Part shown: positions 16,954 to 49,982 of the stretch, one piece after another | Layout: each line of letters begins with the position of its first letter | How positions within the stretch are numbered: position 1 is the stretch's first letter | IMG/VR virus record: IMGVR_UViG_3300023202_000068 | Coordinates: 1 to 64,000 of that record | Direction: 5' to 3' (one strand) | Source: a virus | Length of the DNA stretch: 64,000 bases | Notes under the pieces: generated by a model | Told to the model about the DNA's origin: nothing | Databases searched by the model: none | Seen by the model: only the letters and a program-made list of their open reading frames with translations | Position numbers and translations under genes: made by a program

Positions 16954-17670
16954 CTAGAAAAAATCTTGACCTTCACTTAAGCCTTCTTTAGCTAATTCCC
17001 AGTTAAAGCAATAGGCTTTTTCTTGATAAGGCTGGTATCTAGCGTCTAGTGTTGAAGCATTTACAAAGGTTATAGGGCCTTCCCCTAAATCTTTAACCTC
17101 TACACCACGTGCCTCATGTATGTGACCGAAAATATGCATTTTAACATCTAGCCTGTGTAGGTGTGTAAGAAGCTCTCTACATCCTACGTGTGGATTCCAA
17201 TAAGGTGGGTGTGGAAAAAGTACAGAATCCAAAATCCCTTCGGGAGGACCGTGTGTTATTAAAAGTTCAGTATCGCTTGGTATTTTTTTCCAGTGCTCTT
17301 CAATATGTGCCCCTCTAAATCTATTAAAAGCCCAATTGTTGAAGGCTGGGGATATTGGGGAGCCCCATATTTTAATACCCTCTATTTCAGCACCAGAGTC
17401 GTTTAGATAAATAATGTTATTATCCTTACACATCTGCTCGTAAATCCCACGAGTAGTTTTTTCAAAACCCCAATCGTGATTTCCAGCAATCAGTATTTTA
17501 TACTTGTAAGGAAGGCTTGAGAACCAATTAATAAAACTTGTAACTTCCTTCTTGCTACCTCTACCCGATATGTCTCCGGCGTGAATAATCATTTCACCTG
17601 GAAATAAAAGATCACCCTCACTTAGCAGTTCGTGCTTGTTATGTGTATCCGATATTGTGACGATTCTCAT
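16954..17670 (-). CDS. calcineurin-like metallophosphoesterase
   Basis: SDTH, AGD, AGNHD, THGPP, FGHIHE. Confidence 0.9.
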   Translation of the reverse strand: MRIVTISDTHNKHELLSEGDLLFPGEMIIHAGDISGRGSKKEVTSFINWFSSLPYKYKILIAGNHDWGFEKTTRGIYEQMCKDNNIIYLNDSGAEIEGIKIWGSPISPAFNNWAFNRFRGAHIEEHWKKIPSDTELLITHGPPEGILDSVLFPHPPYWNPHVGCRELLTHLHRLDVKMHIFGHIHEARGVEVKDLGEGPITFVNASTLDARYQPYQEKAYCFNWELAKEGLSEGQDFF

Positions 17671-17672
17671 TT

Positions 17673-18665
17673 TTAAAAACCTATACCCATCTTTTTTGTG
17701 TCAGCAAAGGCAGCTTCAAACCTTTCCTTGTGGGTAACAAGTTGCTCTGCAGCTTCTAGTAGACTAATATCATCTAACTTAGACCTGACAACAATTTCTT
17801 GCAAGTGAGCGATTGAGAATTTTTTACTAGCAGCCAGGTGTGCCGCTGCCTTACCGTCATCAGTGATTTTTTGCTTTGAAATAAATGCAATAAGCTCTTC
17901 TGATTCTGTAGCATTTGGTGTTTTTAACTCTATAACTTTATCAAAACGCCCAGGTCTATCGATTAATGCTCCAACGCTTTGTTCTGGGTTGTTTGTTGTA
18001 GCAATAATAAAGGTAGGGATGCCTTTGAAAGGATTACCTACACCGTCAAGTAAGTTGAGTAATGAAGAATCTGCCCCTCTAGCCCCGTGATAGTCTTCGG
18101 TAGAGCCTCCACCGATATCTTCCATAACCATAATTAGTCTTGTAACTTTTTTACTAAAAGAAGATTTTCTAAGGAAAAATTTGTTCACAGCAGAAGATCT
18201 AACATCAGAAGTATCCCATACAACAACGCAAGTGCCTGAGTCTTGATCTAAAAATCCATTACAAACTTCATTGATAGCCGCTGTTTTACCTACACCAGGA
18301 GGTGAACATAAGATAATTGCACGTTTCGGCTCTCTCTCAAGCTCCTTGTAAACACTAAGTCTATCAAAAAACTTATCGGCTTCAGCCAAGATAGTAGAGG
18401 TGTTATCAATAGATGCCAGTAACTCATACTTGCGAAGTTCAAATTTCTTTAGGGAGGTTCCAAAAGAGCCGTCTTCAATAGAAAAACAGCCAGGTTTGAT
18501 GATAACCTTACCACCTTTTTCCTCGGCTTCCTGGTAGGACATCTGAATTAAGTGATCTTCAGTTTGGATTGTAACGTCCGATTCAGGAATGCTCTTGGCT
18601 ATTTGTTCGGCTAAATCATTTAGTTTTGTAACTTTTTTAATTACAAACTTTCCCTCTTCACTCAT
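17673..18665 (-). CDS. AAA+ ATPase
   Basis: PPGVGKT, VMEDI, LLNLLDG, TTN, DRPGRFD. Confidence 0.9.
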   Translation of the reverse strand: MSEEGKFVIKKVTKLNDLAEQIAKSIPESDVTIQTEDHLIQMSYQEAEEKGGKVIIKPGCFSIEDGSFGTSLKKFELRKYELLASIDNTSTILAEADKFFDRLSVYKELEREPKRAIILCSPPGVGKTAAINEVCNGFLDQDSGTCVVVWDTSDVRSSAVNKFFLRKSSFSKKVTRLIMVMEDIGGGSTEDYHGARGADSSLLNLLDGVGNPFKGIPTFIIATTNNPEQSVGALIDRPGRFDKVIELKTPNATESEELIAFISKQKITDDGKAAAHLAASKKFSIAHLQEIVVRSKLDDISLLEAAEQLVTHKERFEAAFADTKKMGIGF

Positions 18666-34529: not shown

Positions 34530-35426
34530 ATGTCCAAGAAAATTAAGACTATTATAGATACTTCTTCGATGCCAGAGGTTAAATTTAGCCTCGACGCACA
34601 GGAGAAGTTTGGTCGCAGTCGCGGTGTCATATTTGAACACTGGTCTGCTATACCATCCCCTATAGGACTCAAAGACCGTGGAGACTACCGAAGGTCAGAT
34701 ACGCTGGATACTATTTCAGAAAATGGCTTTATATATAAGAAGGTTGGTTGTTTTGTGGCGACCATTGTGGGTAACGGTCACCAGAATCAGCACAACGGTC
34801 CTGCAGAAGCCGGTATTTACGACAATAGCACAGCTAGAATTATCATACCCAAGTTTTATGAGGACACTGATCAAAAAAAAGAAATTTCTCTGCTTCCAGG
34901 CGACCGAATATACGCAAGAGATATAGAGCTGAATGTTGAGAACTATCAAAGGGCAGAATATAACCCTAACTCTTCGGACTTCTTACAGTTTCCAGCTAAA
35001 TGCGTTAGTAGACTGGTAGACTCAAAGGGTATTGAGTACACAGAGGGTAGAGATTTTAAGATCAATCGAGATGGAAATGTTCAATGGATATCTGGAAAAA
35101 AGAACCCTGGTATTGACCCAGAAACGGGCAAGGGCAGGATATACTCTATTAGATACGAGTATACAGCCTTCTGGTATATCCAGCAATTGATTAATGAGAT
35201 AAGAATTACCAATACCGACGACGCTGAGAGCCCAGCACGTATGCCATACCACGCTATGGTACAAAGAGAATATGTTTACCACAACCAGAACCGAAAAAAA
35301 CCTGCTGAAACTGAAGAAAAAGTTACAAGAAAGACTGAGCCTACTCGTAAAAACCCAGAGCCTCGTGAAGATATTGAGCCTAACCAGCCAGAAGTACAGG
35401 TAGACCTGAGGAATTTCACAGAGTAG
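34530..35426 (+). CDS. neck/head-closure protein
   Basis: LLPGDRIY, YTEGRDFKI..DGNVQW, YSIRYEY pattern; neck region context. Confidence 0.55.
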   Translation: MSKKIKTIIDTSSMPEVKFSLDAQEKFGRSRGVIFEHWSAIPSPIGLKDRGDYRRSDTLDTISENGFIYKKVGCFVATIVGNGHQNQHNGPAEAGIYDNSTARIIIPKFYEDTDQKKEISLLPGDRIYARDIELNVENYQRAEYNPNSSDFLQFPAKCVSRLVDSKGIEYTEGRDFKINRDGNVQWISGKKNPGIDPETGKGRIYSIRYEYTAFWYIQQLINEIRITNTDDAESPARMPYHAMVQREYVYHNQNRKKPAETEEKVTRKTEPTRKNPEPREDIEPNQPEVQVDLRNFTE

Positions 35427-36840: not shown

Positions 36841-38049
36841 ATGCAAGAAATATATGTAGCTATCAACGGTGACGATGTAGGAAATTCAATAGGTTCCGCT
36901 ATTGCTTCTGACGATAGGGAATCACTTGGCTCTACAACCTCCACTTTAAAAGATATACATTCGCAAATTGACCAGTGGGTTGAGCAGTGCGGTGGTGAAG
37001 TTGTAACTTCTTCAGGAGATGAAGGTATCTATAAGGTACCACATGAGTGTGCTGATCACCTAGAGGATATTCGAAGTGAGTATCAAGAGCACACAGGGCA
37101 CACATTGACTATTGGTGTTGGCCAGAGCATGTCTGAAGCTGCCAAAGCTTTGATCTATGGAAAAATGAACAACAAAGACCAGATTGTAGAGTATGCACCT
37201 GAAATGGACGAAGCTATTTCAAGTGAAACTGGTGAAATGGGCACTCAAGGATACGAGCAGCAAAACGAAGGTAAACTTCCTGCAGAAGAAGAAATGTCTT
37301 ATCAAAAGGAAAATGCTGCTCAGCAAGAAGCTAGTATGGCTGAAGAGCCCGATGAAGACATGGTTGAAGAAGACGGTGAAGGCGAAGCTGATAAAGATGC
37401 CGAAGAGATCATTGAAGAAGCCTCTAATGACCCAGAGCATGAAAAAGACATGACTCCTGAAGAAGAGCGCGAGCATGATGCTGCAGAAAATGAGCTTGAT
37501 GAAATGGATGACGATATCGTTGAAGCCGATGAAGAGGCTAATATGGAAGGTATCGACGGCGAAGCTGGTGAAGAAGACATGCAAGTTGATGAAGATGAGA
37601 ATATGGAAGAAGAACCTGAAGCTGACGAAGGTGATCACGAAGATTTATTAGCCGAAATGGTTCATGCTCATATGTCTGGTGAAGAAGATGAAGAAATGCC
37701 AGAAGAAGAGATGATGGAAGAAGAGGTGCCTGAAGAAATGCCAGAAGAAGAGATGATGGAGGAGGACCAATACAGTGACGAAGAAATTGAAAACTTACGT
37801 GCTGATATTGCTCATTCTTTAAACTCCTTTAAGGCAAATAGAGAAATGATCTTGCAAATGCAACAGGCAAGTCCTGAAATGTACGAGAGCTTAATGGTAA
37901 TGCTAAGATCTATGATCGCTATGGGTAGACATATGGGTTTTGACGCTGAACAGGCTGCTGATGAACAAATGTCTGAAGCACAGGCACAAGAAGAAATGCC
38001 TGAAGCTGCTCCAGAAGGTCAACCAATGGCGATGTCTGAAAAAAAGTAG
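36841..38049 (+). CDS. mCpol/GGDEF-like palm domain plus long acidic tail
   Basis: YVAINGDDVG...GGEVVTSSGDE...TLTIGVGQSMSEAAKALIYGKMNNKD. Confidence 0.7.
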   Translation: MQEIYVAINGDDVGNSIGSAIASDDRESLGSTTSTLKDIHSQIDQWVEQCGGEVVTSSGDEGIYKVPHECADHLEDIRSEYQEHTGHTLTIGVGQSMSEAAKALIYGKMNNKDQIVEYAPEMDEAISSETGEMGTQGYEQQNEGKLPAEEEMSYQKENAAQQEASMAEEPDEDMVEEDGEGEADKDAEEIIEEASNDPEHEKDMTPEEEREHDAAENELDEMDDDIVEADEEANMEGIDGEAGEEDMQVDEDENMEEEPEADEGDHEDLLAEMVHAHMSGEEDEEMPEEEMMEEEVPEEMPEEEMMEEDQYSDEEIENLRADIAHSLNSFKANREMILQMQQASPEMYESLMVMLRSMIAMGRHMGFDAEQAADEQMSEAQAQEEMPEAAPEGQPMAMSEKK

Positions 38050-38090
38050 CAGGGGTAGGTCGTGGACCTAAAGATCCCATGAGCCTACCC
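38040..38090 (+). other. programmed -1 ribosomal frameshift signal
   Basis: In-phase A AAA AAG before TAG, 6-nt spacer, ~13-bp stem; -1 frame open into the 38079 ORF. Confidence 0.75.
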
Positions 38091-38354
38091 GACAAAGCCG
38101 CCAAAAAAATACCTAAAAAGCAAGCTCCAGTTGGTGCACAACGCGGTAATAAGCTTAAAGTATTAGATGGTGACACAGGTAAAGTTAGGTGGAGAAAAGG
38201 TACTAAGGGTTTCTTGAGAGACTATGACGGTGACCCTGTTAGTACAAATTACACGGCTAGGTATTTAAAACCTAAGCCAAAACACAGCCCACATATGGGG
38301 GGAAAGCGCAGACACGATCCACACATGGGTGACCGAGACGGCGCTTATCAATAA
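38079..38354 (+). CDS. basic ORF, probably the -1 frameshift extension of the 36841 gene
   Basis: No clear RBS; in the -1 frame of the upstream gene. Confidence 0.65.
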   Translation: MSLPDKAAKKIPKKQAPVGAQRGNKLKVLDGDTGKVRWRKGTKGFLRDYDGDPVSTNYTARYLKPKPKHSPHMGGKRRHDPHMGDRDGAYQ

Positions 38355-38362
38355 GGGATAGA

Positions 38363-39124
38363 ATGGCAAACTTTGATTTATTATTTGAAATAGATGTCGA
38401 AGATATGTCAAAAGATCTCGGTGAACTCAAAGAGATGATGCAAAAAGATCTCACCGAGGGAGTCCAGGCTGTCGCTTCTATGACACACGCAAAGACACTA
38501 GAGCTTGCTAGAGACGAGCTTAATAGTCTATCTTCAATGTACCAGGACAACGTAGAATTTGAACATCCTGAAAAAGGAATGTGGGTAGTTACGATTAAAA
38601 ATCCAGCTATGTGGATTGAAGAAGGACGTAAGTCCGGTTTTATGGAAGAGCTGTTGAACGGCAAGTCCAGTAAAGTCAACGCCAAGGGTGAAAGATACGC
38701 AGTTATACCTTTTAAGCATAATAAGAATCCAAGCGAACAGTCGGCTAAAGCACAAGAGTTAGCTGGACAGATTAAGTCTGCTATGAAAGATAAGGGATTA
38801 AGTGTAAAAAAACTTGAGCTTAATCAAGACGGTAGCCCTCGTATTGGCAAACTTCATTCTTTTAATGTAGAAAGTGCAAGACTTAAGCCTCACCATAAAG
38901 ATCCTGCTACTTACGGCGTTAGTGTTTATCAAAATAAAATGCCTGACGGTACCGTGAGAAGAGATGTAATGACTTTTAGAGTGATTACGGAAAAACACAA
39001 AGAAGAGGGCAAGTGGGTTCATCCAGGTAGACAGGGCTCTAAGATTCTTGATAAAGCTTTTGATTGGGCTATGCAGACTTGGGAGCGAGAAATTCTACCA
39101 GGAATATTGGAGAGTTATAAATGA
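38363..39124 (+). CDS. neck/tail-completion protein
   Basis: AMWIEEG, YAVIPFKH, TFRVIT..KWVHPG; neck context. Confidence 0.6.
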   Translation: MANFDLLFEIDVEDMSKDLGELKEMMQKDLTEGVQAVASMTHAKTLELARDELNSLSSMYQDNVEFEHPEKGMWVVTIKNPAMWIEEGRKSGFMEELLNGKSSKVNAKGERYAVIPFKHNKNPSEQSAKAQELAGQIKSAMKDKGLSVKKLELNQDGSPRIGKLHSFNVESARLKPHHKDPATYGVSVYQNKMPDGTVRRDVMTFRVITEKHKEEGKWVHPGRQGSKILDKAFDWAMQTWEREILPGILESYK

Positions 39125-40173: not shown

Positions 40174-40515
40174 ATGAAAAACGATTCAAAAAACGATAAA
40201 ATTTACAATGACACAGATCTTGTGAAGGCTATCTATAAGACAATTCAGAAAAAAATGAAAAATCGTCACTACAAAGATGATGCCCAGGAAATCATACGTG
40301 ATGTCCTTGACCCTAACTATGTAGCTGAAGTAGACCCAGACGAGGTTCCAGCAGGTAAAACTAATATTACCATGAAGTCTGATAAGGGTGTTGATAAGTT
40401 GAAAAAATTTCAAAAAAGTAAGAAAAGTAAGAAGAAAGGCAGATGTTGGGACGGCTATGAGCCAACACCTGGTAAAAAACCATGTAGTGAAGGTTCATGT
40501 CGTAAAAAGAAGTAA
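40174..40515 (+). CDS. basic late protein with C-terminal CWDGYxxxPGK microdomain
   Basis: TMKSD, FQKSK; RCWDGYEPTPGKKPCSEGSCRKKK. Confidence 0.65.
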   Translation: MKNDSKNDKIYNDTDLVKAIYKTIQKKMKNRHYKDDAQEIIRDVLDPNYVAEVDPDEVPAGKTNITMKSDKGVDKLKKFQKSKKSKKKGRCWDGYEPTPGKKPCSEGSCRKKK

Positions 40516-40521
40516 CAATTC

Positions 40522-40530
40522 TAATCTTTA
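40522..40530 (+). promoter_or_regulatory. putative late promoter TAATCTTTA
   Basis: Upstream of 40565. Confidence 0.7.
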
Positions 40531-40564
40531 CTAGTAGCTGGTAACAAATATAAGGATAGCAAAT

Positions 40565-41482
40565 ATGAGCAAAAAAGACGATAAATCATACACTGCCCAC
40601 GATGCGGCTCTTGCTGTATTGAAGAAAGCTCAAGAGATGCTCAAGAAAAGCACTCTAGCAAAAGCTAATACTGCTCACGAAGTTGAGGCTGGTGGAGAAC
40701 CAAAATCTGAAGGCTCTGAAGCCCCTGAATACTTGGCAAACGCTGATATTGAAAGCACCTCAGGTACTGACAGAAATGAAGCCCCTGACCAAATCAAACA
40801 GGCTCATGTTGACACTGATGACGCTGAAAAAGAAAAGAAGCGTAAAAAATACGATGGCGCTATGAAAGCCAGCGACGATGATGAAGAAAAAGAAGAAGAG
40901 ATCGAAGAAGATCAAGAAGATTATGGTTCTGAAGAAGAAGACAAAGACGATGATCAAGAAGATTATCACCAAAAAGGTAAAGACGTACCTACAGACAAGG
41001 GTACTAAGCACTTTGGTAAATCTGAAGATGTAGAGGCAGCCGCTAAAGCAGTAATGGGTGATAAAGATCTAGACGATGTTTTGGATAAAATGCCTAAAGA
41101 CAAGCGAGACGATGTTTTGCGCAAACTTCGTGAAATGAAGAAAATGGGCAAATCAAAAGGTAGCATGATGGCTGCATGTAAGTCAGAACTAGCTAAGTGC
41201 GGAGAAATGGAACGCGGCAAGAAAATGAAAAAATCTGAATCTAACCATAAAGACGGTATTAGTAAAGTCTACGGTTTTCTTGCTAAAAGTTATGCTAAAA
41301 AAGCTGACGAAAAAAGAATGGCAACACCTGAGGAAATGCAATCTTTAGAAGAGGCCAAAAAAGAAAAGAAAAAGAAATTAAAAAAGATGGCTGGGGAAAC
41401 TGCAAAAGCACCAAAAGACATGATGAAGCCACAAAGTAACAGTTCTATGCCCCCTGTTCCAAGCGGAAAGCAAGGATACTAG
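40565..41482 (+). CDS. charged, disordered putative internal head protein with many xxK[S/A] sites
   Basis: LKKS, LAKA, AMKA, FGKSE, MGKS, ACKSE, MKKSE, LAKS. Confidence 0.7.
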   Translation: MSKKDDKSYTAHDAALAVLKKAQEMLKKSTLAKANTAHEVEAGGEPKSEGSEAPEYLANADIESTSGTDRNEAPDQIKQAHVDTDDAEKEKKRKKYDGAMKASDDDEEKEEEIEEDQEDYGSEEEDKDDDQEDYHQKGKDVPTDKGTKHFGKSEDVEAAAKAVMGDKDLDDVLDKMPKDKRDDVLRKLREMKKMGKSKGSMMAACKSELAKCGEMERGKKMKKSESNHKDGISKVYGFLAKSYAKKADEKRMATPEEMQSLEEAKKEKKKKLKKMAGETAKAPKDMMKPQSNSSMPPVPSGKQGY

Positions 41483-41732: not shown

Positions 41733-43877
41733 ATGGCACAAAGAATTAGTACATCGTTTATCAATACTAACAGGCCAGGTGCTTACTTCGATGTTCAAGT
41801 AAAGTCTACTCCTGTAGGTGTTGCAAGCTCAGGTAATATCATAATTATCGGTGAAGCTGCTGGTGGAGCTGCTGTTGCAGGAATCGATTCAGCAGAAGGT
41901 GATTTGCTAAAAGACAACTTTTTCACACCTGATCAGGTTGATAGAGTTGTTGCAAAATATATTAGTGGTCCAATTGTTGATGCTTTTAGAGCACTTTCAT
42001 CTCCTAGCTCTGATGCAAACATTTCTGGTTCTGCAAATAGAATTTACATTGCTAAAACGAACACTGGAACACGAGCCTCTGCGACTATCGCAAGTGCTTA
42101 CGGAACAATTCGAGATAAGAACTACGGAATTGATGGTAATAAATACTCTTTTAGTATTTCTCAGTCAATTGACGAAGAAGCCCCACAGATTACTGGTTCA
42201 GTAATCGCATCTTTTGGAGCGGCACTTGACGGTGACTTCAGAATGAGAATTGACGGTGGTGCTGAAATTACTGTAACAATTGCATCAAGTCCTGCAGATA
42301 TGACAGATCTTCTAACAGAACTTAACGGTGGTGCTTTGCCAGCCGGAGTGACTGCTACAGAGGGCACTGCTGCTGACAGCTTGACGCTAACATACGACGC
42401 AGATGCTGCGGCTAACAGTAAAGGAAGTGGTAAGTCTATCGAGCTTATTGAGGATTCTATTTTAGCTGCCCTTGGACACTCAGAAGGACTTGTAGTTTCT
42501 TCTGCTGAGCCTGAGGTTCAAGTTGATATCGTAAGACAAGACACTGGAATTAACGAGTCTTTCTTGGCTGAAGCTCAAGTTGCATTGAGAATTGGCTACG
42601 AAGGAACAACTGGAACTATAGATATTACAGACTCTAGCTTGACTACTACTGTAACTGGTGGTTCTGGAACTAACTTGAACATTAACTTGTCAGAGTATCC
42701 TTTGATGTCAGACTTGGCTGAGTTTATCAACTCACAAACTGGTTACACTTGTGTAGCTACCCCTGGGGCATCTCAAACTTCTCCTGTATCTCTTGACGAC
42801 GTTACAGGTGTTGGAATTGCTTCAAGTGATGCTGGAATCCTACCTGGTCGAATTAAAATTTCAACTCTTAGGTTTGAACAAGCAATAGGTCAATCTGCAG
42901 TATTAGATTTTATCTTAACTGCCGATGAAGGTCTACCAGAAGTTGCATCTAGTCAGTTTTTGACTGGTGGACAGCGCGGTGGAACTCTAGCTGCTGATTT
43001 TGTTACAGCTTACACAGACCTAGAGGGTATTGATGTAAACTTTGTAATTCCTTTGATCTCAAGAGATGCTTCTGCAGATATTCTTGACGGTCTAACGGAC
43101 TCTAGCTCTACTTATACAATTGCTGCTGTAAACGCTCTTACAAAAAGCCATGTACTTAAAATGTCTACGGCTAAACTTAAGAAGCACAGAACGGCATTTT
43201 GTAGTTTTGACGGTTCATACTCAGATGCAGTTGCTCAGGCTGGTTCACTAGCTAACCAACGTGTGTCGCTTTGTATGCAAAGAACTAGTCAGGTTAACGC
43301 TGTAGGGGCTGTTGTTAACTTTCAACCTTGGCACACCGCATGTATTGCTGCTGGTATGCAGGCTGCTGGTTTTTACAGATCTATCACAAACAAATTTGCA
43401 AACGTAATTAGCTTTAGCGACCCATCAGGTTTTGACTCTGGTAGCCCTGGAGATATTGAATCTGCTCTTGATGCTGGACTTCTTTTTCTTGAAAAAGCAG
43501 TTGTTGGTAACAAGTGGGTTTCCGATCAAACAACTTATGGAATTGACACAAACTTCGTTTACAACTCAGTTCAAGCTATGTATGCTTCTGATCTAGTTTC
43601 ACTTGATCTTGCAGACAGCTTTCAAACTGCCTTTGTTGGTCAGTCTTTGGCTGATGTAGATGCTTCTACTGCCTTGTCTTTCTTGGCTTCTAAAATGGAT
43701 GCATTTAAAAAACAAAAGCTTATAGCTGCTTCTGACGATGCCCCTCTTGGGTTCAAGAATGCTCGTGTAAGAATCAATGGTCCAATTATGGAAGTTGGTG
43801 TAGAAATTAAGCTTGCTACGGCAATCTTATTCATTCCAATTAACATTGAAATCAGTCAAGTACAAAGCGAAGCTTAG
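41733..43877 (+). CDS. contractile tail sheath protein
   Basis: RPGAYFDV, IIIGEAAGG, FLTGG..G, C-terminal ILFIPINIEI; 714 aa upstream of tube. Confidence 0.92.
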   Translation: MAQRISTSFINTNRPGAYFDVQVKSTPVGVASSGNIIIIGEAAGGAAVAGIDSAEGDLLKDNFFTPDQVDRVVAKYISGPIVDAFRALSSPSSDANISGSANRIYIAKTNTGTRASATIASAYGTIRDKNYGIDGNKYSFSISQSIDEEAPQITGSVIASFGAALDGDFRMRIDGGAEITVTIASSPADMTDLLTELNGGALPAGVTATEGTAADSLTLTYDADAAANSKGSGKSIELIEDSILAALGHSEGLVVSSAEPEVQVDIVRQDTGINESFLAEAQVALRIGYEGTTGTIDITDSSLTTTVTGGSGTNLNINLSEYPLMSDLAEFINSQTGYTCVATPGASQTSPVSLDDVTGVGIASSDAGILPGRIKISTLRFEQAIGQSAVLDFILTADEGLPEVASSQFLTGGQRGGTLAADFVTAYTDLEGIDVNFVIPLISRDASADILDGLTDSSSTYTIAAVNALTKSHVLKMSTAKLKKHRTAFCSFDGSYSDAVAQAGSLANQRVSLCMQRTSQVNAVGAVVNFQPWHTACIAAGMQAAGFYRSITNKFANVISFSDPSGFDSGSPGDIESALDAGLLFLEKAVVGNKWVSDQTTYGIDTNFVYNSVQAMYASDLVSLDLADSFQTAFVGQSLADVDASTALSFLASKMDAFKKQKLIAASDDAPLGFKNARVRINGPIMEVGVEIKLATAILFIPINIEISQVQSEA

Positions 43878-47354: not shown

Positions 47355-47738
47355 ATGGGTCTATTAGAAGAACGCGCTGAACTAATCAAAGACGGTAAGT
47401 TTAAGCTTTCATTTTTTAAAAAGTTTTATGAACAAATGCAGTGGACAAGGGTACCAAGACAACTTGGCCCTAAGCACCCTGCATTTTTTTATTATGGTAA
47501 ATACGAAGACAAGTTTAAAATTGTAAATATTCGTATTCGACCCACTATGTTTATGGTTGTTGAGGAAACAGTAAAAGGCTGTGACAAAAACGGCAATAAG
47601 CCTCCGACAAACTACAGAGGTCAAACATTTGAGTTTGGAACTACTGTTGAAGTAAAAATTGATGAAGCATTTCTTAAAAAAATAAAAGACCTGGCTCAAG
47701 CAGAAACAACAACTTCCATTCAAAAGGTTAGCTGGTAA
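47355..47738 (+). CDS. hypothetical protein
   Basis: AGGAG RBS. Confidence 0.65.
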   Translation: MGLLEERAELIKDGKFKLSFFKKFYEQMQWTRVPRQLGPKHPAFFYYGKYEDKFKIVNIRIRPTMFMVVEETVKGCDKNGNKPPTNYRGQTFEFGTTVEVKIDEAFLKKIKDLAQAETTTSIQKVSW

Positions 47739-48073
47739 TGGCTGATTTTCAAGACTTTGACTTAGAACTACAAAACCTAAAAGGTAGTGAGCCTGAAAAA
47801 TTTAAAGCTCAAATACCTACTGCTGGTGCTGCTGTAACACTTACACCAGCAACAGGTCGTCCTGTAACACTTGCGTTTATAGACGTACCAAGTCGTCGTG
47901 ACCCAGACAATCCAAACGGCATAAACGATGCTGTAAAATATAGCATTGATGGTGGAAACACGTTTCTAACCCTTCTTGCCGGTGAATCTATATACATACC
48001 AGGTACCTTTACTGACTTACAACTTGATACTAATGCGAACGGCACCTGGTATCAAGCAATTCTTTGGAGTTAA
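47738..48073 (+). CDS. small beta-rich virion protein
   Basis: Translationally coupled ORF in fibre cluster. Confidence 0.55.
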   Translation: MADFQDFDLELQNLKGSEPEKFKAQIPTAGAAVTLTPATGRPVTLAFIDVPSRRDPDNPNGINDAVKYSIDGGNTFLTLLAGESIYIPGTFTDLQLDTNANGTWYQAILWS

Positions 48074-48074
48074 C

Positions 48075-49982
48075 ATGCCTGGGTTTTGGAATGCAGTAAA
48101 ACAAAAAATACAAACGGCACTAGAAACACCCTTTGACAATACTGGGTCTAGTCTTGTTAGTGAAGATGCAGAGAGTGCTATTAAAGAGGTTAGTACAAAT
48201 ACTGCAACTTCTGCATCTCCAGGTTTTACCTGGGGTGACGTAGGTTCTGCTACTGCCGGTACGTTTCTTGAAAACGACAGTGTTCAATCTAGTAACTCTG
48301 GACGACTAGTTCCCTTTGACGGCTTTATTACTGATTTTTTTATAAATAATGAAAGGTCTCAGGGTACAAAAATAATGGAGATCTTAAGAAGAAGACCTGC
48401 CCAAACAGGTACTTACACTCCAATTTTTCAAACAACCTTGGGTCCAGGGACACGAGTTGTAAGAGTACCTGTAAATGTAGCAGTGCTAGAAGAAGACGAG
48501 CTTGCAATTAGAGTTCAACCTGGTTCCGATAGATTTCAAAACCCAGTAGTTGGTTTAATTCTTAAAAACAACTCTGGTTCTGGTGCTGTTGGTGGGGTTT
48601 TTTTACAGACTGAAGATGAAGGTAGTCAAATTGAGGCTACCACTACAAAGTATAACTTTACAGGTGCTGGTGTAAGTGCAGTTTCAGATGGTAATGGAAA
48701 TGTAACCGTTGATGTACCTGGTGGTGGAGCAGGCTCAGGAGAGGCCAATACAGCCTCTAATCGCGGAACAGGCGAAGCCTTATTTGCTGCAAAAAGCGGT
48801 GTTGATTTAGAATTTAAGTCTTTAGTAGCAGGGTCAAATGTATCCCTTTCTTCCAATGGAGATACTGTTACAATTAATTCAAGTGGAGGCGGAGGTGGTG
48901 GTTCCTTTGCTGCTGCAAGAGTTGAGGCAAACGCTAACCTCTTAGAGTCTACTAACATTGCGAGTGTTACAAACCCATCTACAGGAAATTACACAGTAAC
49001 ATTTACGAGTCCTGCTGCAAATGCTAACTATCCAATAACAATGGGTATAGAACAAAACGCAGGCACTGATGATTACTTTGTAAGTTATACAAATGTAACG
49101 GTAAACGGATTTGATGTACAAGTTAGAGAGCAAGACGATGGTGGAGGCGGTGGTACTGCTGTAAATTCCGGCTTTAGTATAGATATTCCAGATCTATCAC
49201 CAGGTGGTGGCGGTGGGGGTGAGACCAATACAGCCTCTAATGCTGGCTCTGCATCTGATGCTGATATTTTCAAACAAAAGACTGGCGTAGATTTAGAGTT
49301 TAGAAGACTTACGTCTGGTGCCAATATAAGTATTACACAAAACGCTGATGACATAGTAATAGCCGCATCAGGGAGTGCTGGGGAGGTAAATACAGGAGTA
49401 AATGTTGGTGGTGGGTCCGAGGTATTTAGAGACAAGACTGGAACTGCACTTAACTTTCGAACAATAGTTGGAACTGGTGATATTAATGTAACTACAAGTG
49501 GAAATACCATTGAAGTTGGAGGTACTTTTCCAGTAGTTGACGCAAATACAAACAGGGTCGCAGAAGCTGGAGACGTAGCAGGGGGACAGTCGGTTTCTAC
49601 TACAGGTTTTGCAAACTTGAGCTTTGATACTTTTGCAAGCTCTGCTGTAGCTACAGCATCTGCAACAGGAGTGGCAATTAATGTTACTGGGTTTTATGAA
49701 ATTTCCTATGACTACTCTGCAAGCGGTGATTCTAATTCTAGATCAGAATCACAAGCACGGTTGTTTTTAAATGGCACTACTGTCATTTCACTGTCATTAA
49801 GGCCAGTTTACCACAGAACAACCGCTCAAGGTGCTGGCTCTGCTACTGCAGTAAGGTATTTACAGCTTTCATCTGGAGACACGATATCTCTACAGGCTCA
49901 AAGATCTGCAGGCGGTGCTCCGATCACTACAGAGCCAAATGGAACTATTTTAAGGGTAAAGTATTTAAGGAGTAGTGTGTAA
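48075..49982 (+). CDS. tail fibre/spike protein with three GExNTxxNxG repeats and C1q/TNF-like tip
   Basis: GGAG RBS before ATG 48075; repeats and Gly hinges; C-terminal GFYEISY...LSSGDTISL jelly-roll pattern. Confidence 0.75.
   Translation: MPGFWNAVKQKIQTALETPFDNTGSSLVSEDAESAIKEVSTNTATSASPGFTWGDVGSATAGTFLENDSVQSSNSGRLVPFDGFITDFFINNERSQGTKIMEILRRRPAQTGTYTPIFQTTLGPGTRVVRVPVNVAVLEEDELAIRVQPGSDRFQNPVVGLILKNNSGSGAVGGVFLQTEDEGSQIEATTTKYNFTGAGVSAVSDGNGNVTVDVPGGGAGSGEANTASNRGTGEALFAAKSGVDLEFKSLVAGSNVSLSSNGDTVTINSSGGGGGGSFAAARVEANANLLESTNIASVTNPSTGNYTVTFTSPAANANYPITMGIEQNAGTDDYFVSYTNVTVNGFDVQVREQDDGGGGGTAVNSGFSIDIPDLSPGGGGGGETNTASNAGSASDADIFKQKTGVDLEFRRLTSGANISITQNADDIVIAASGSAGEVNTGVNVGGGSEVFRDKTGTALNFRTIVGTGDINVTTSGNTIEVGGTFPVVDANTNRVAEAGDVAGGQSVSTTGFANLSFDTFASSAVATASATGVAINVTGFYEISYDYSASGDSNSRSESQARLFLNGTTVISLSLRPVYHRTTAQGAGSATAVRYLQLSSGDTISLQAQRSAGGAPITTEPNGTILRVKYLRSSV

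Follow-up and report, generated by a model that had tools for sequence, protein, structure and literature searches.

The DNA analysed here – the window – is a stretch of 64,000 nucleotides (positions 1 to 64,000 of IMG/VR record IMGVR_UViG_3300023202_000068) belonging to a viral record about 153.5 kb long. Among sequencing runs, one DNA metagenome run, probably the source, was listed as containing the stretch, and no RNA run was. An open reading frame on the + strand at 36841..38049 (ORF1) encodes an acidic protein of 402 amino acids (45 kDa, pI 4.05, with 126 Asp and Glu residues), and the gene is located in the late morphogenesis cluster, within the neck module. A gene coding for a virion protein (phrog_1004) lies at 34530, and ORF1 is followed by a conserved + strand gene (38363..39124; phrog_16819) encoding a 253-residue protein with a tail-completion-like predicted fold, by a terminator-like gene at 39121 (PF23932, just under threshold), and by a sheath gene at 41733. 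The structural model of the 253-residue protein (pLDDT 80) aligns by VIA-align with 9mu2_P – chain P of the SaPI1/80alpha neck structure – with a Z score of 11.8 and an rmsd of 2.3 over 106/109 residues, the next row having a Z score of 6.5; the residue range of this chain (7-115) suggests that it is gp51, which is the tail completion protein of phage 80alpha. Foldseek returned nothing below E 0.1 with the same model, and a profile of this protein found nothing significant among PDB sequences. Synteny with the 253-residue gene is preserved at all of the loci examined, including that of the cultured Myxococcus phage Mx1.

The ORF1 protein is composed of a polymerase-like palm, an acidic low-complexity region of approximately 180 residues, a conserved helical segment, and a short acidic linker. 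The palm (residues 5-118, encoded at 36853..37194, + strand) scores 57.7 bits (E 1.8e-15; cut-off 26.4) against the mCpol family of Pfam (PF18182), the match covering profile positions 1-114 of 114. The name mCpol denotes a minimal CRISPR polymerase, and mCpol enzymes were recently shown to run Panoptes immunity. The domain also aligns to the solved Panoptes protein OptS (9mnr) with an E value of 1e-8. In KpOptS the catalytic metals are held by Asp6 and Asp57 (PMC12657218). The equivalent of Asp57 is kept in ORF1 as D60, within the motif SGDEG, and the equivalent of Asp6 is Asn9; N9, D11, and G59-D60-E61 are invariant in 48 homologues. Because Asn9 replaces a catalytic aspartate, mCpol activity in this branch of the family may be altered or lost, as judged from these residues. 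Searches of the ESM Atlas with the C-terminal helical part of ORF1 gave no usable lead, PADLOC reports a domain-level mCpol hit only, and no Panoptes effector (2TM-beta or CARF-TM) is located beside ORF1, its neighbours being virion and neck genes.

The 3′ end of ORF1 reads GAA (38038-40) AAA AAG TAG (38047-49), so that the protein ends ...MSEKK and an A AAA AAG heptamer (38040..38046, + strand) stands in the X XXY YYZ slippery phase of ORF1, immediately abutting the zero-frame TAG stop at 38047..38049. A reading made earlier from the sequence alone had proposed that this heptamer, together with a stem positioned 6 nt downstream, directs a programmed -1 frameshift that adds a basic tail to the ORF1 protein, and each element that it described at this junction is present. 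The -1 frame, which is closed 2 codons upstream of the heptamer, is open from 38046 for 102 codons up to the TAA at 38352-38354 (extension 38046..38354, + strand); it begins VAGVGRGPKDP and then runs through an ATG at 38079 and the reading frame that follows it. The extension is basic, as had been claimed, with a pI of 10.3 and 24 Lys and Arg among its 102 residues. The predicted transframe product has 504 residues (56 kDa) and the junction ...MSEKK/VAGVGRGPKDPMSLPDK..., and the computed sizes of 402 and 504 residues agree with those given in the sequence-only reading (402 and about 504).

The heptamer alone is not a rare feature, as AAAAAAG occurs 57 times in the window with 38 expected. The combination of heptamer, fold, and stop at 38040 is exceptional in the window, however. 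There are 98 X XXA AAG-type heptamers on the two strands, and the 50 nt downstream of the 38040 site fold more stably (-21.0 kcal/mol) than those downstream of any other (mean -6.4, sd 3.9, runner-up -16.2). Moreover, of the 25 X XXA AAG heptamers that are in phase within 113 ORFs of at least 80 aa, only that at 38040 both abuts a stop and opens a long -1 frame. A T TTA AAG heptamer at 47801, with a hairpin of -16 kcal/mol, was considered as a candidate tail-chaperone shift and rejected, as it is out of phase with its containing ORF.

The putative stimulatory hairpin occupies 38053..38090 (+ strand), and begins after six unpaired nucleotides (38047-38052), the first half of this spacer being the TAG stop. 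Positions 38053-38065 pair with 38077-38082 and 38084-38090 to form an interrupted helix of 13 bp with an 11-nt loop and G38083 bulged, and the 3′ arm covers the tail codons Met-Ser-Leu-Pro. Folding of 38047-38100 gives -21.0 kcal/mol (z = -3.4), a stability equalled by 1 of 200 shuffled sequences, and returns the stem and spacer as they had been drawn in the earlier reading. No Rfam family matches at the hairpin. A scan of the junction found no promoter-like site and no + strand terminator-like site; since there is also no U tract after the hairpin, it is not a terminator.

Comparison with related phages shows that this arrangement is widespread. An X XXA AAG-type heptamer stands in phase 0-7 codons (mostly 0-1) before the ORF1 stop at 25 distinct loci of related phages, where the -1 frame encodes the same tail (..LPDK.TKHIPK..GK.KV.DG.TGK..WR..; 22 sequences were aligned); going upstream from the heptamer, the -1 frame is closed after 2-8 codons in most of these loci. 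The loci were gathered by routes that differ in what they select. Retrieval with the mCpol domain, in which the 3′ end of the gene plays no part, gave 32 IMG/VR loci (about 22 distinct), of which 16 have an in-phase heptamer no more than 3 codons from the stop together with a homologous -1 tail; a further two have the tail in frame (L023 and L026), two lack it and run directly into the next gene (L028 and L030), and two are too distant to be judged (L036 and L037). The heptamer is also present at all six tail-retrieved loci (L001-L006), three of which – L004, L005, and L006, with the heptamer in phase in each – are metagenome loci obtained with the tail profile, and three further loci were fetched from protein hits for the heptamer survey. 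Searches of IMG/VR with the tail alone and with the tail profile returned nothing. Among cultured phages there was no match to the locus at the nucleotide level nor to the tail, and the protein search found only Myxococcus phage Mx1, at 27% identity.

The closest homologues of the tail (62-70% identity) are three sequences on short Logan contigs, and all three keep A AAA AAG TAG, exactly 33 nt between there and the ATG, and an open -1 frame. Their linker peptide follows the pattern V[AV]GV[GA][RI]G[PR]K[DN]P, with changes mainly at third codon positions (GGA, GGC, GGT, and GGG at one glycine), and ORF1 sequence upstream of the linker diverges freely. The comparison of homologues thus documents, at the level of sequence, the signal, its phase, and the open frame, and shows all three to be under purifying conservation throughout the family. 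Whether heptamer and stem are conserved in homologues is the check that the sequence-only reading had itself put forward as capable of refuting it; when run, it came out in support, with the heptamer, its phase, a spacer of about 6 nt, a co-varying hairpin, and the -1 tail all conserved across the 25 loci.

The identity of the heptamer varies between loci. A AAA AAG is found in most, with C CCA AAG in five (L022, L024, L025, L033, and L035), G GGA AAG in two (L040 and L041), and A AAA AAA in one (L034). These heptamers code for KK, PK, or GK, and all are in phase, so that it is the slipperiness and not the peptide that is conserved; a varying dipeptide with persisting phase and slipperiness is the prediction of selection acting on the RNA signal. 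Across a larger set of 59 ORF1 homologues, KK, GK, or PK is present at, or within 12 residues of, the C-terminus in 56.

The hairpin is also conserved in position while varying in sequence. A helix of 5-14 bp, beginning 5-7 nt 3′ of the heptamer, is present in 20 loci; in the minimum-energy folds this distance is most often exactly 6 nt, and in 18 of the 20 the 3′ arm coincides with the conserved Leu-Pro codons of the tail. The arms differ between loci but match within each locus, for example CUA CCC/GGGUAG, CUU CC/GGAAG, CUG CC/GGCAG, and UUG CCA GCC/GGCUGG. Because subfamilies differ by one base in helix register, also when aligned without gaps, covariation was assessed by a home-made permutation test of duplex energy. 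The mean energy is -16.1 kcal/mol with each locus's own arms versus -9.2 kcal/mol with arms swapped across loci, and none of 20000 permutations reached the observed mean (p <= 5e-5), the outcome being the same with 14 non-redundant loci. Two loci (L009 and L021) are without a hairpin and have runs of nine A's instead.

Homopolymer A runs are known to support slippage of RNA polymerase in bacteria, as in Thermus dnaX and IS elements, and the window heptamer lies in a run of seven A's (38039-38045). Addition of an extra A by RNA polymerase within this run would join the two frames with no ribosomal shift, and such slippage may operate at the two hairpin-less loci with nine A's. It is a very improbable account of the window, however: seven A's are short for efficient slippage, the same architecture is found with only three A's in relatives whose heptamer is C CCA AAG or G GGA AAG, and a co-varying hairpin 5-7 nt downstream is a signature of ribosomal shifting. 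Transcriptional slippage could contribute at the A run of the window, but since the CCCAAAG and GGGAAAG variants keep the layout, it is not the mechanism common to the family.

The second alternative is that ORF1 and the tail are two separate genes, with a basic 91-residue protein initiating at ATG 38079 (38079..38081, + strand), and with the heptamer and hairpin being incidental or serving to throttle that start. Gene callers do annotate the tail as a small ORF of its own, and a Met at, or within 4 codons of, the ATG position recurs in 9 of the 25 loci. Yet this start is poorly placed in the window: it is base-paired within the 3′ arm of the hairpin, and there is no GGAG/AGGA-type Shine-Dalgarno sequence before it, whereas such sequences are present at the starts at 36841 and 38363, in agreement with the earlier remark that 38079 is without a clear ribosome binding site. 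In most homologues the Met is replaced, by K, G, S, N, or F; for instance, the equivalent residue is Lys in L004 and Gly in L005 and L006, so that there is no ATG at that position. Nine loci (L004, L007, L009, L011, L013, L020, L027, L034, and L035) have no ATG, GTG, or TTG for at least 20 tail codons, a start-free stretch that runs well beyond the conserved LPDK.TKH motif, and at several others the sole candidate start is a TTG coding for the conserved Leu.

The annotations themselves fit this pattern. An exhaustive profile search recovered 59 short stand-alone tail calls whose N-termini are scattered over profile positions 9 to 59, as expected when gene callers take the first internal start available. 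In addition, the K-D-P residues encoded just upstream of the ATG (38070-38078) match KDP[KM]SLPDK in relatives, in-frame fusions included, and by their location would be translated only after a shift. Conservation of heptamer class and phase while the encoded residues vary is likewise at odds with a separate gene, and we consider that reading extremely improbable, though some additional independent initiation at ATG 38079 is possible in the window phage.

In other members of the family the tail is joined to the mCpol protein without any shift. It is in frame at the C-terminus of L023, P0026, P0041, and P0048, where the junction reads ..KKKALKKAKDPKSLPDK.., and further fusions are present in L026, L043 (in which synteny with the 253-residue gene is also kept), and another seven representatives in which Pfam detects mCpol. 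Mx1 has the tail fused in frame, and this is the sole version among the cultured phages searched. The in-frame branch keeps an Asp at the Asp6 position of OptS. These natural fusions indicate that the long product is a functional protein in its own right. Among longer tail-carrying proteins, a Streptomyces beta-propeller hit from a word-indexed library was spurious, and it was the exhaustive profile search that found the real fusions. Although the fusions, and the error-prone nature of homopolymers, could suggest that the window gene is truly one continuous frame of 504 codons broken by an assembly or sequencing error, this is hardly conceivable, because 25 independent assemblies, originating in different studies, show the same split, which is always to -1 with a zero-frame stop close by, and non-homopolymer heptamers are among the split loci.

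Taken together, we consider it very probable (at roughly 90%, as judged from comparative sequence analysis) that a programmed -1 ribosomal frameshift makes products of 402 and 504 residues from one message. The slip itself, which we infer from the features described above, would take place when a ribosome arrives at A AAA AAG and the hairpin, located 6 nt further on, is held at its mRNA entrance. Most ribosomes would decode AAG, reach TAG, and release the acidic 402-residue protein, and in a fraction of them the P- and A-site lysine tRNAs would re-pair one base back (from AAA AAG to AAA AAA). The next codon would then be GUA at 38046, and translation would proceed for a total of 102 codons more to give the 504-residue form with its basic C-terminal tail (...SEKK-VAGVGRGPKDPMSLPDK...).

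The mechanism proposed is a textbook one, and its closest mechanical counterpart is Escherichia coli dnaX (tau/gamma), which likewise relies on A AAA AAG, on a hairpin 6 nt downstream of it, and on slippage of lysine tRNA. There are two differences. The dnaX shift truncates the protein (gamma), whereas the shift here would extend it, and the upstream Shine-Dalgarno stimulator of dnaX is not conserved in the mCpol family: some 10 nt before the heptamer the window reads GGCG, only L001 and L002 have GGAG, and no comparable sequence is seen in L013. Slipping on AAG is governed by the lysine tRNAs available, and the window itself encodes no tRNA genes.

Among phage genes, the predicted shift is similar in its general plan to that of gene 10A/10B of T7 and T3, in which a late virion-cluster gene has a -1 shift near its stop that extends a minority of copies of a common body. 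In T7 and T3, however, the gene is that of the major capsid protein and the heptamer is a different one, while here the body is an mCpol-like palm with an acidic region, and the site directly abuts the stop and is followed by a well-defined hairpin. Similarly, lambda gpG/gpGT is a conserved -1 shift in a morphogenesis cluster, in which the extension presumably links the shared part to a second component in a fixed proportion, and its G GGA AAG heptamer is also that of L040 and L041. The lambda gene pair lies between the tail tube and tape-measure genes, though, and has no sequence similarity to ORF1 and its tail. The site here precedes the genes for the tail-completion-like, terminator-like, and sheath proteins, and since both the position and the protein differ, this is not a tail-chaperone shift, a point on which the sequence-only reading was correct.

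The tail itself matches no family in Pfam, PHROG, or PADLOC, and gave no usable lead in the ESM Atlas. Its AlphaFold model is a weak one (pLDDT 66), showing an extended chain with one beta-hairpin. The tail is not restricted to mCpol-like proteins, as proteins containing ART-PolyVal and DUF5661 domains also end in it (P0136 according to Pfam; P0141 and P0149 are near-identical in C-terminal sequence). It thus behaves as a portable C-terminal module. From its presence on ART-PolyVal proteins, and the constant location of the ORF1 gene before a tail-completion-like gene, we infer a virion-anchoring or cargo module.

Our best guess is that the tail would serve as a modular anchor at the C-terminus, tying a fixed fraction of the protein either to DNA or to a component of the neck or virion. 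The proportions of free and anchored protein would in that case be determined by the shift, in the manner of T7 10A/10B or lambda G/GT. A more specific proposal, which we regard as unlikely though not far-fetched, is that cargo enzymes of the mCpol-like and ART-PolyVal types share the tail as a portable module for virion loading or neck anchoring, with the frameshift dosing a particle-carried mCpol-like nucleotide cyclase (or a nucleotide-binding pseudo-enzyme) that would be delivered with the DNA, for instance against host cyclic-nucleotide immunity such as Panoptes. The similarity to Panoptes lies in the N-terminal 118 residues, which correspond to Pfam mCpol and align over the whole length of OptS. 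Unlike OptS, the ORF1 protein is phage-encoded within a morphogenesis cluster, and has a long acidic region, a putatively recoded tail, and an invariant Asn at the Asp6 position.

A literature search found no report of recoding or frameshifting in phage mCpol genes, and the gene family that would use this mechanism is new. If the frameshift reading is correct, it bears on annotation, because in widespread uncultured phages of 100-170 kb the tail is called as an orphan small ORF with an arbitrary start, or is left uncalled, and the transframe protein would be the real product behind such annotations. It would also provide a lead on how phages use the mCpol domain, with two forms made at a fixed ratio from a neck-module gene. 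The four X XXA AAG heptamers, the co-varying hairpins, the hairpin-less loci with nine A's, and the in-frame fusions make the family a useful series in which to follow the evolution, gain, and loss of frameshift signals.

The basic C-terminal tail of the mCpol-like protein (ORF1) is a portable module carried by different enzyme heads, because the same tail that ends mCpol proteins also ends proteins with ART-PolyVal and DUF5661 domains. It closes three further proteins recovered by the profile search (P0136, P0141 and P0149), in which ART-PolyVal – the ADP-ribosyltransferase of polyvalent proteins – and DUF5661 stand in place of mCpol; these Pfam domains were assigned on P0136 only, with P0141 and P0149 grouped through the C-terminal sequence that they have in common with it. 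Within the mCpol-like domain itself, Asn9 (36865-36867) matches the catalytic Asp6 of the Panoptes protein OptS. This asparagine is invariant among the 48 aligned homologues of the branch with the tail in the -1 frame, and Asp is retained at the equivalent position in the branch with the tail fused in frame.

Two related phage loci have a run of nine A's at the junction (L009:5386-5395 and L021:5393-5402), in both cases without a downstream hairpin, and in these the tail frame may be reached via transcriptional slippage instead of ribosomal shifting.

The window contains a second in-phase A AAA AAG heptamer on the minus strand (17691-17697), five codons ahead of the stop of a 330-aa ORF (17673-18665). 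The -1 frame runs from it for 245 codons and enters the next gene (16954-17670), whose ATG lies 2 nt past that stop; just seven or so linker codons are at stake, and this heptamer may therefore be a chance occurrence. A T TTA AAG heptamer (47801-47807) is located near the genes presumed to encode the chaperone and tape measure (47355-49982). A hairpin of -16.2 kcal/mol begins 7 nt downstream of this heptamer, which is out of slippery phase relative to the ORF at 47738-48073.

Two more highly charged low-complexity proteins, one basic (113 aa) and one K/E/D-rich (305 aa), are encoded at 40174-41482, with the terminator-like gene on one side and the sheath gene on the other, and neither has a family match. 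Immediately 3′ of the tail is a conserved 253-aa gene (38363-39124) belonging to phrog_16819, which has no function assigned in PHROG. Its predicted fold resembles that of the 80alpha/SaPI1 tail completion protein gp51 (Z 11.8), with a large insertion in addition, and this modelled similarity offers a candidate annotation for phrog_16819.
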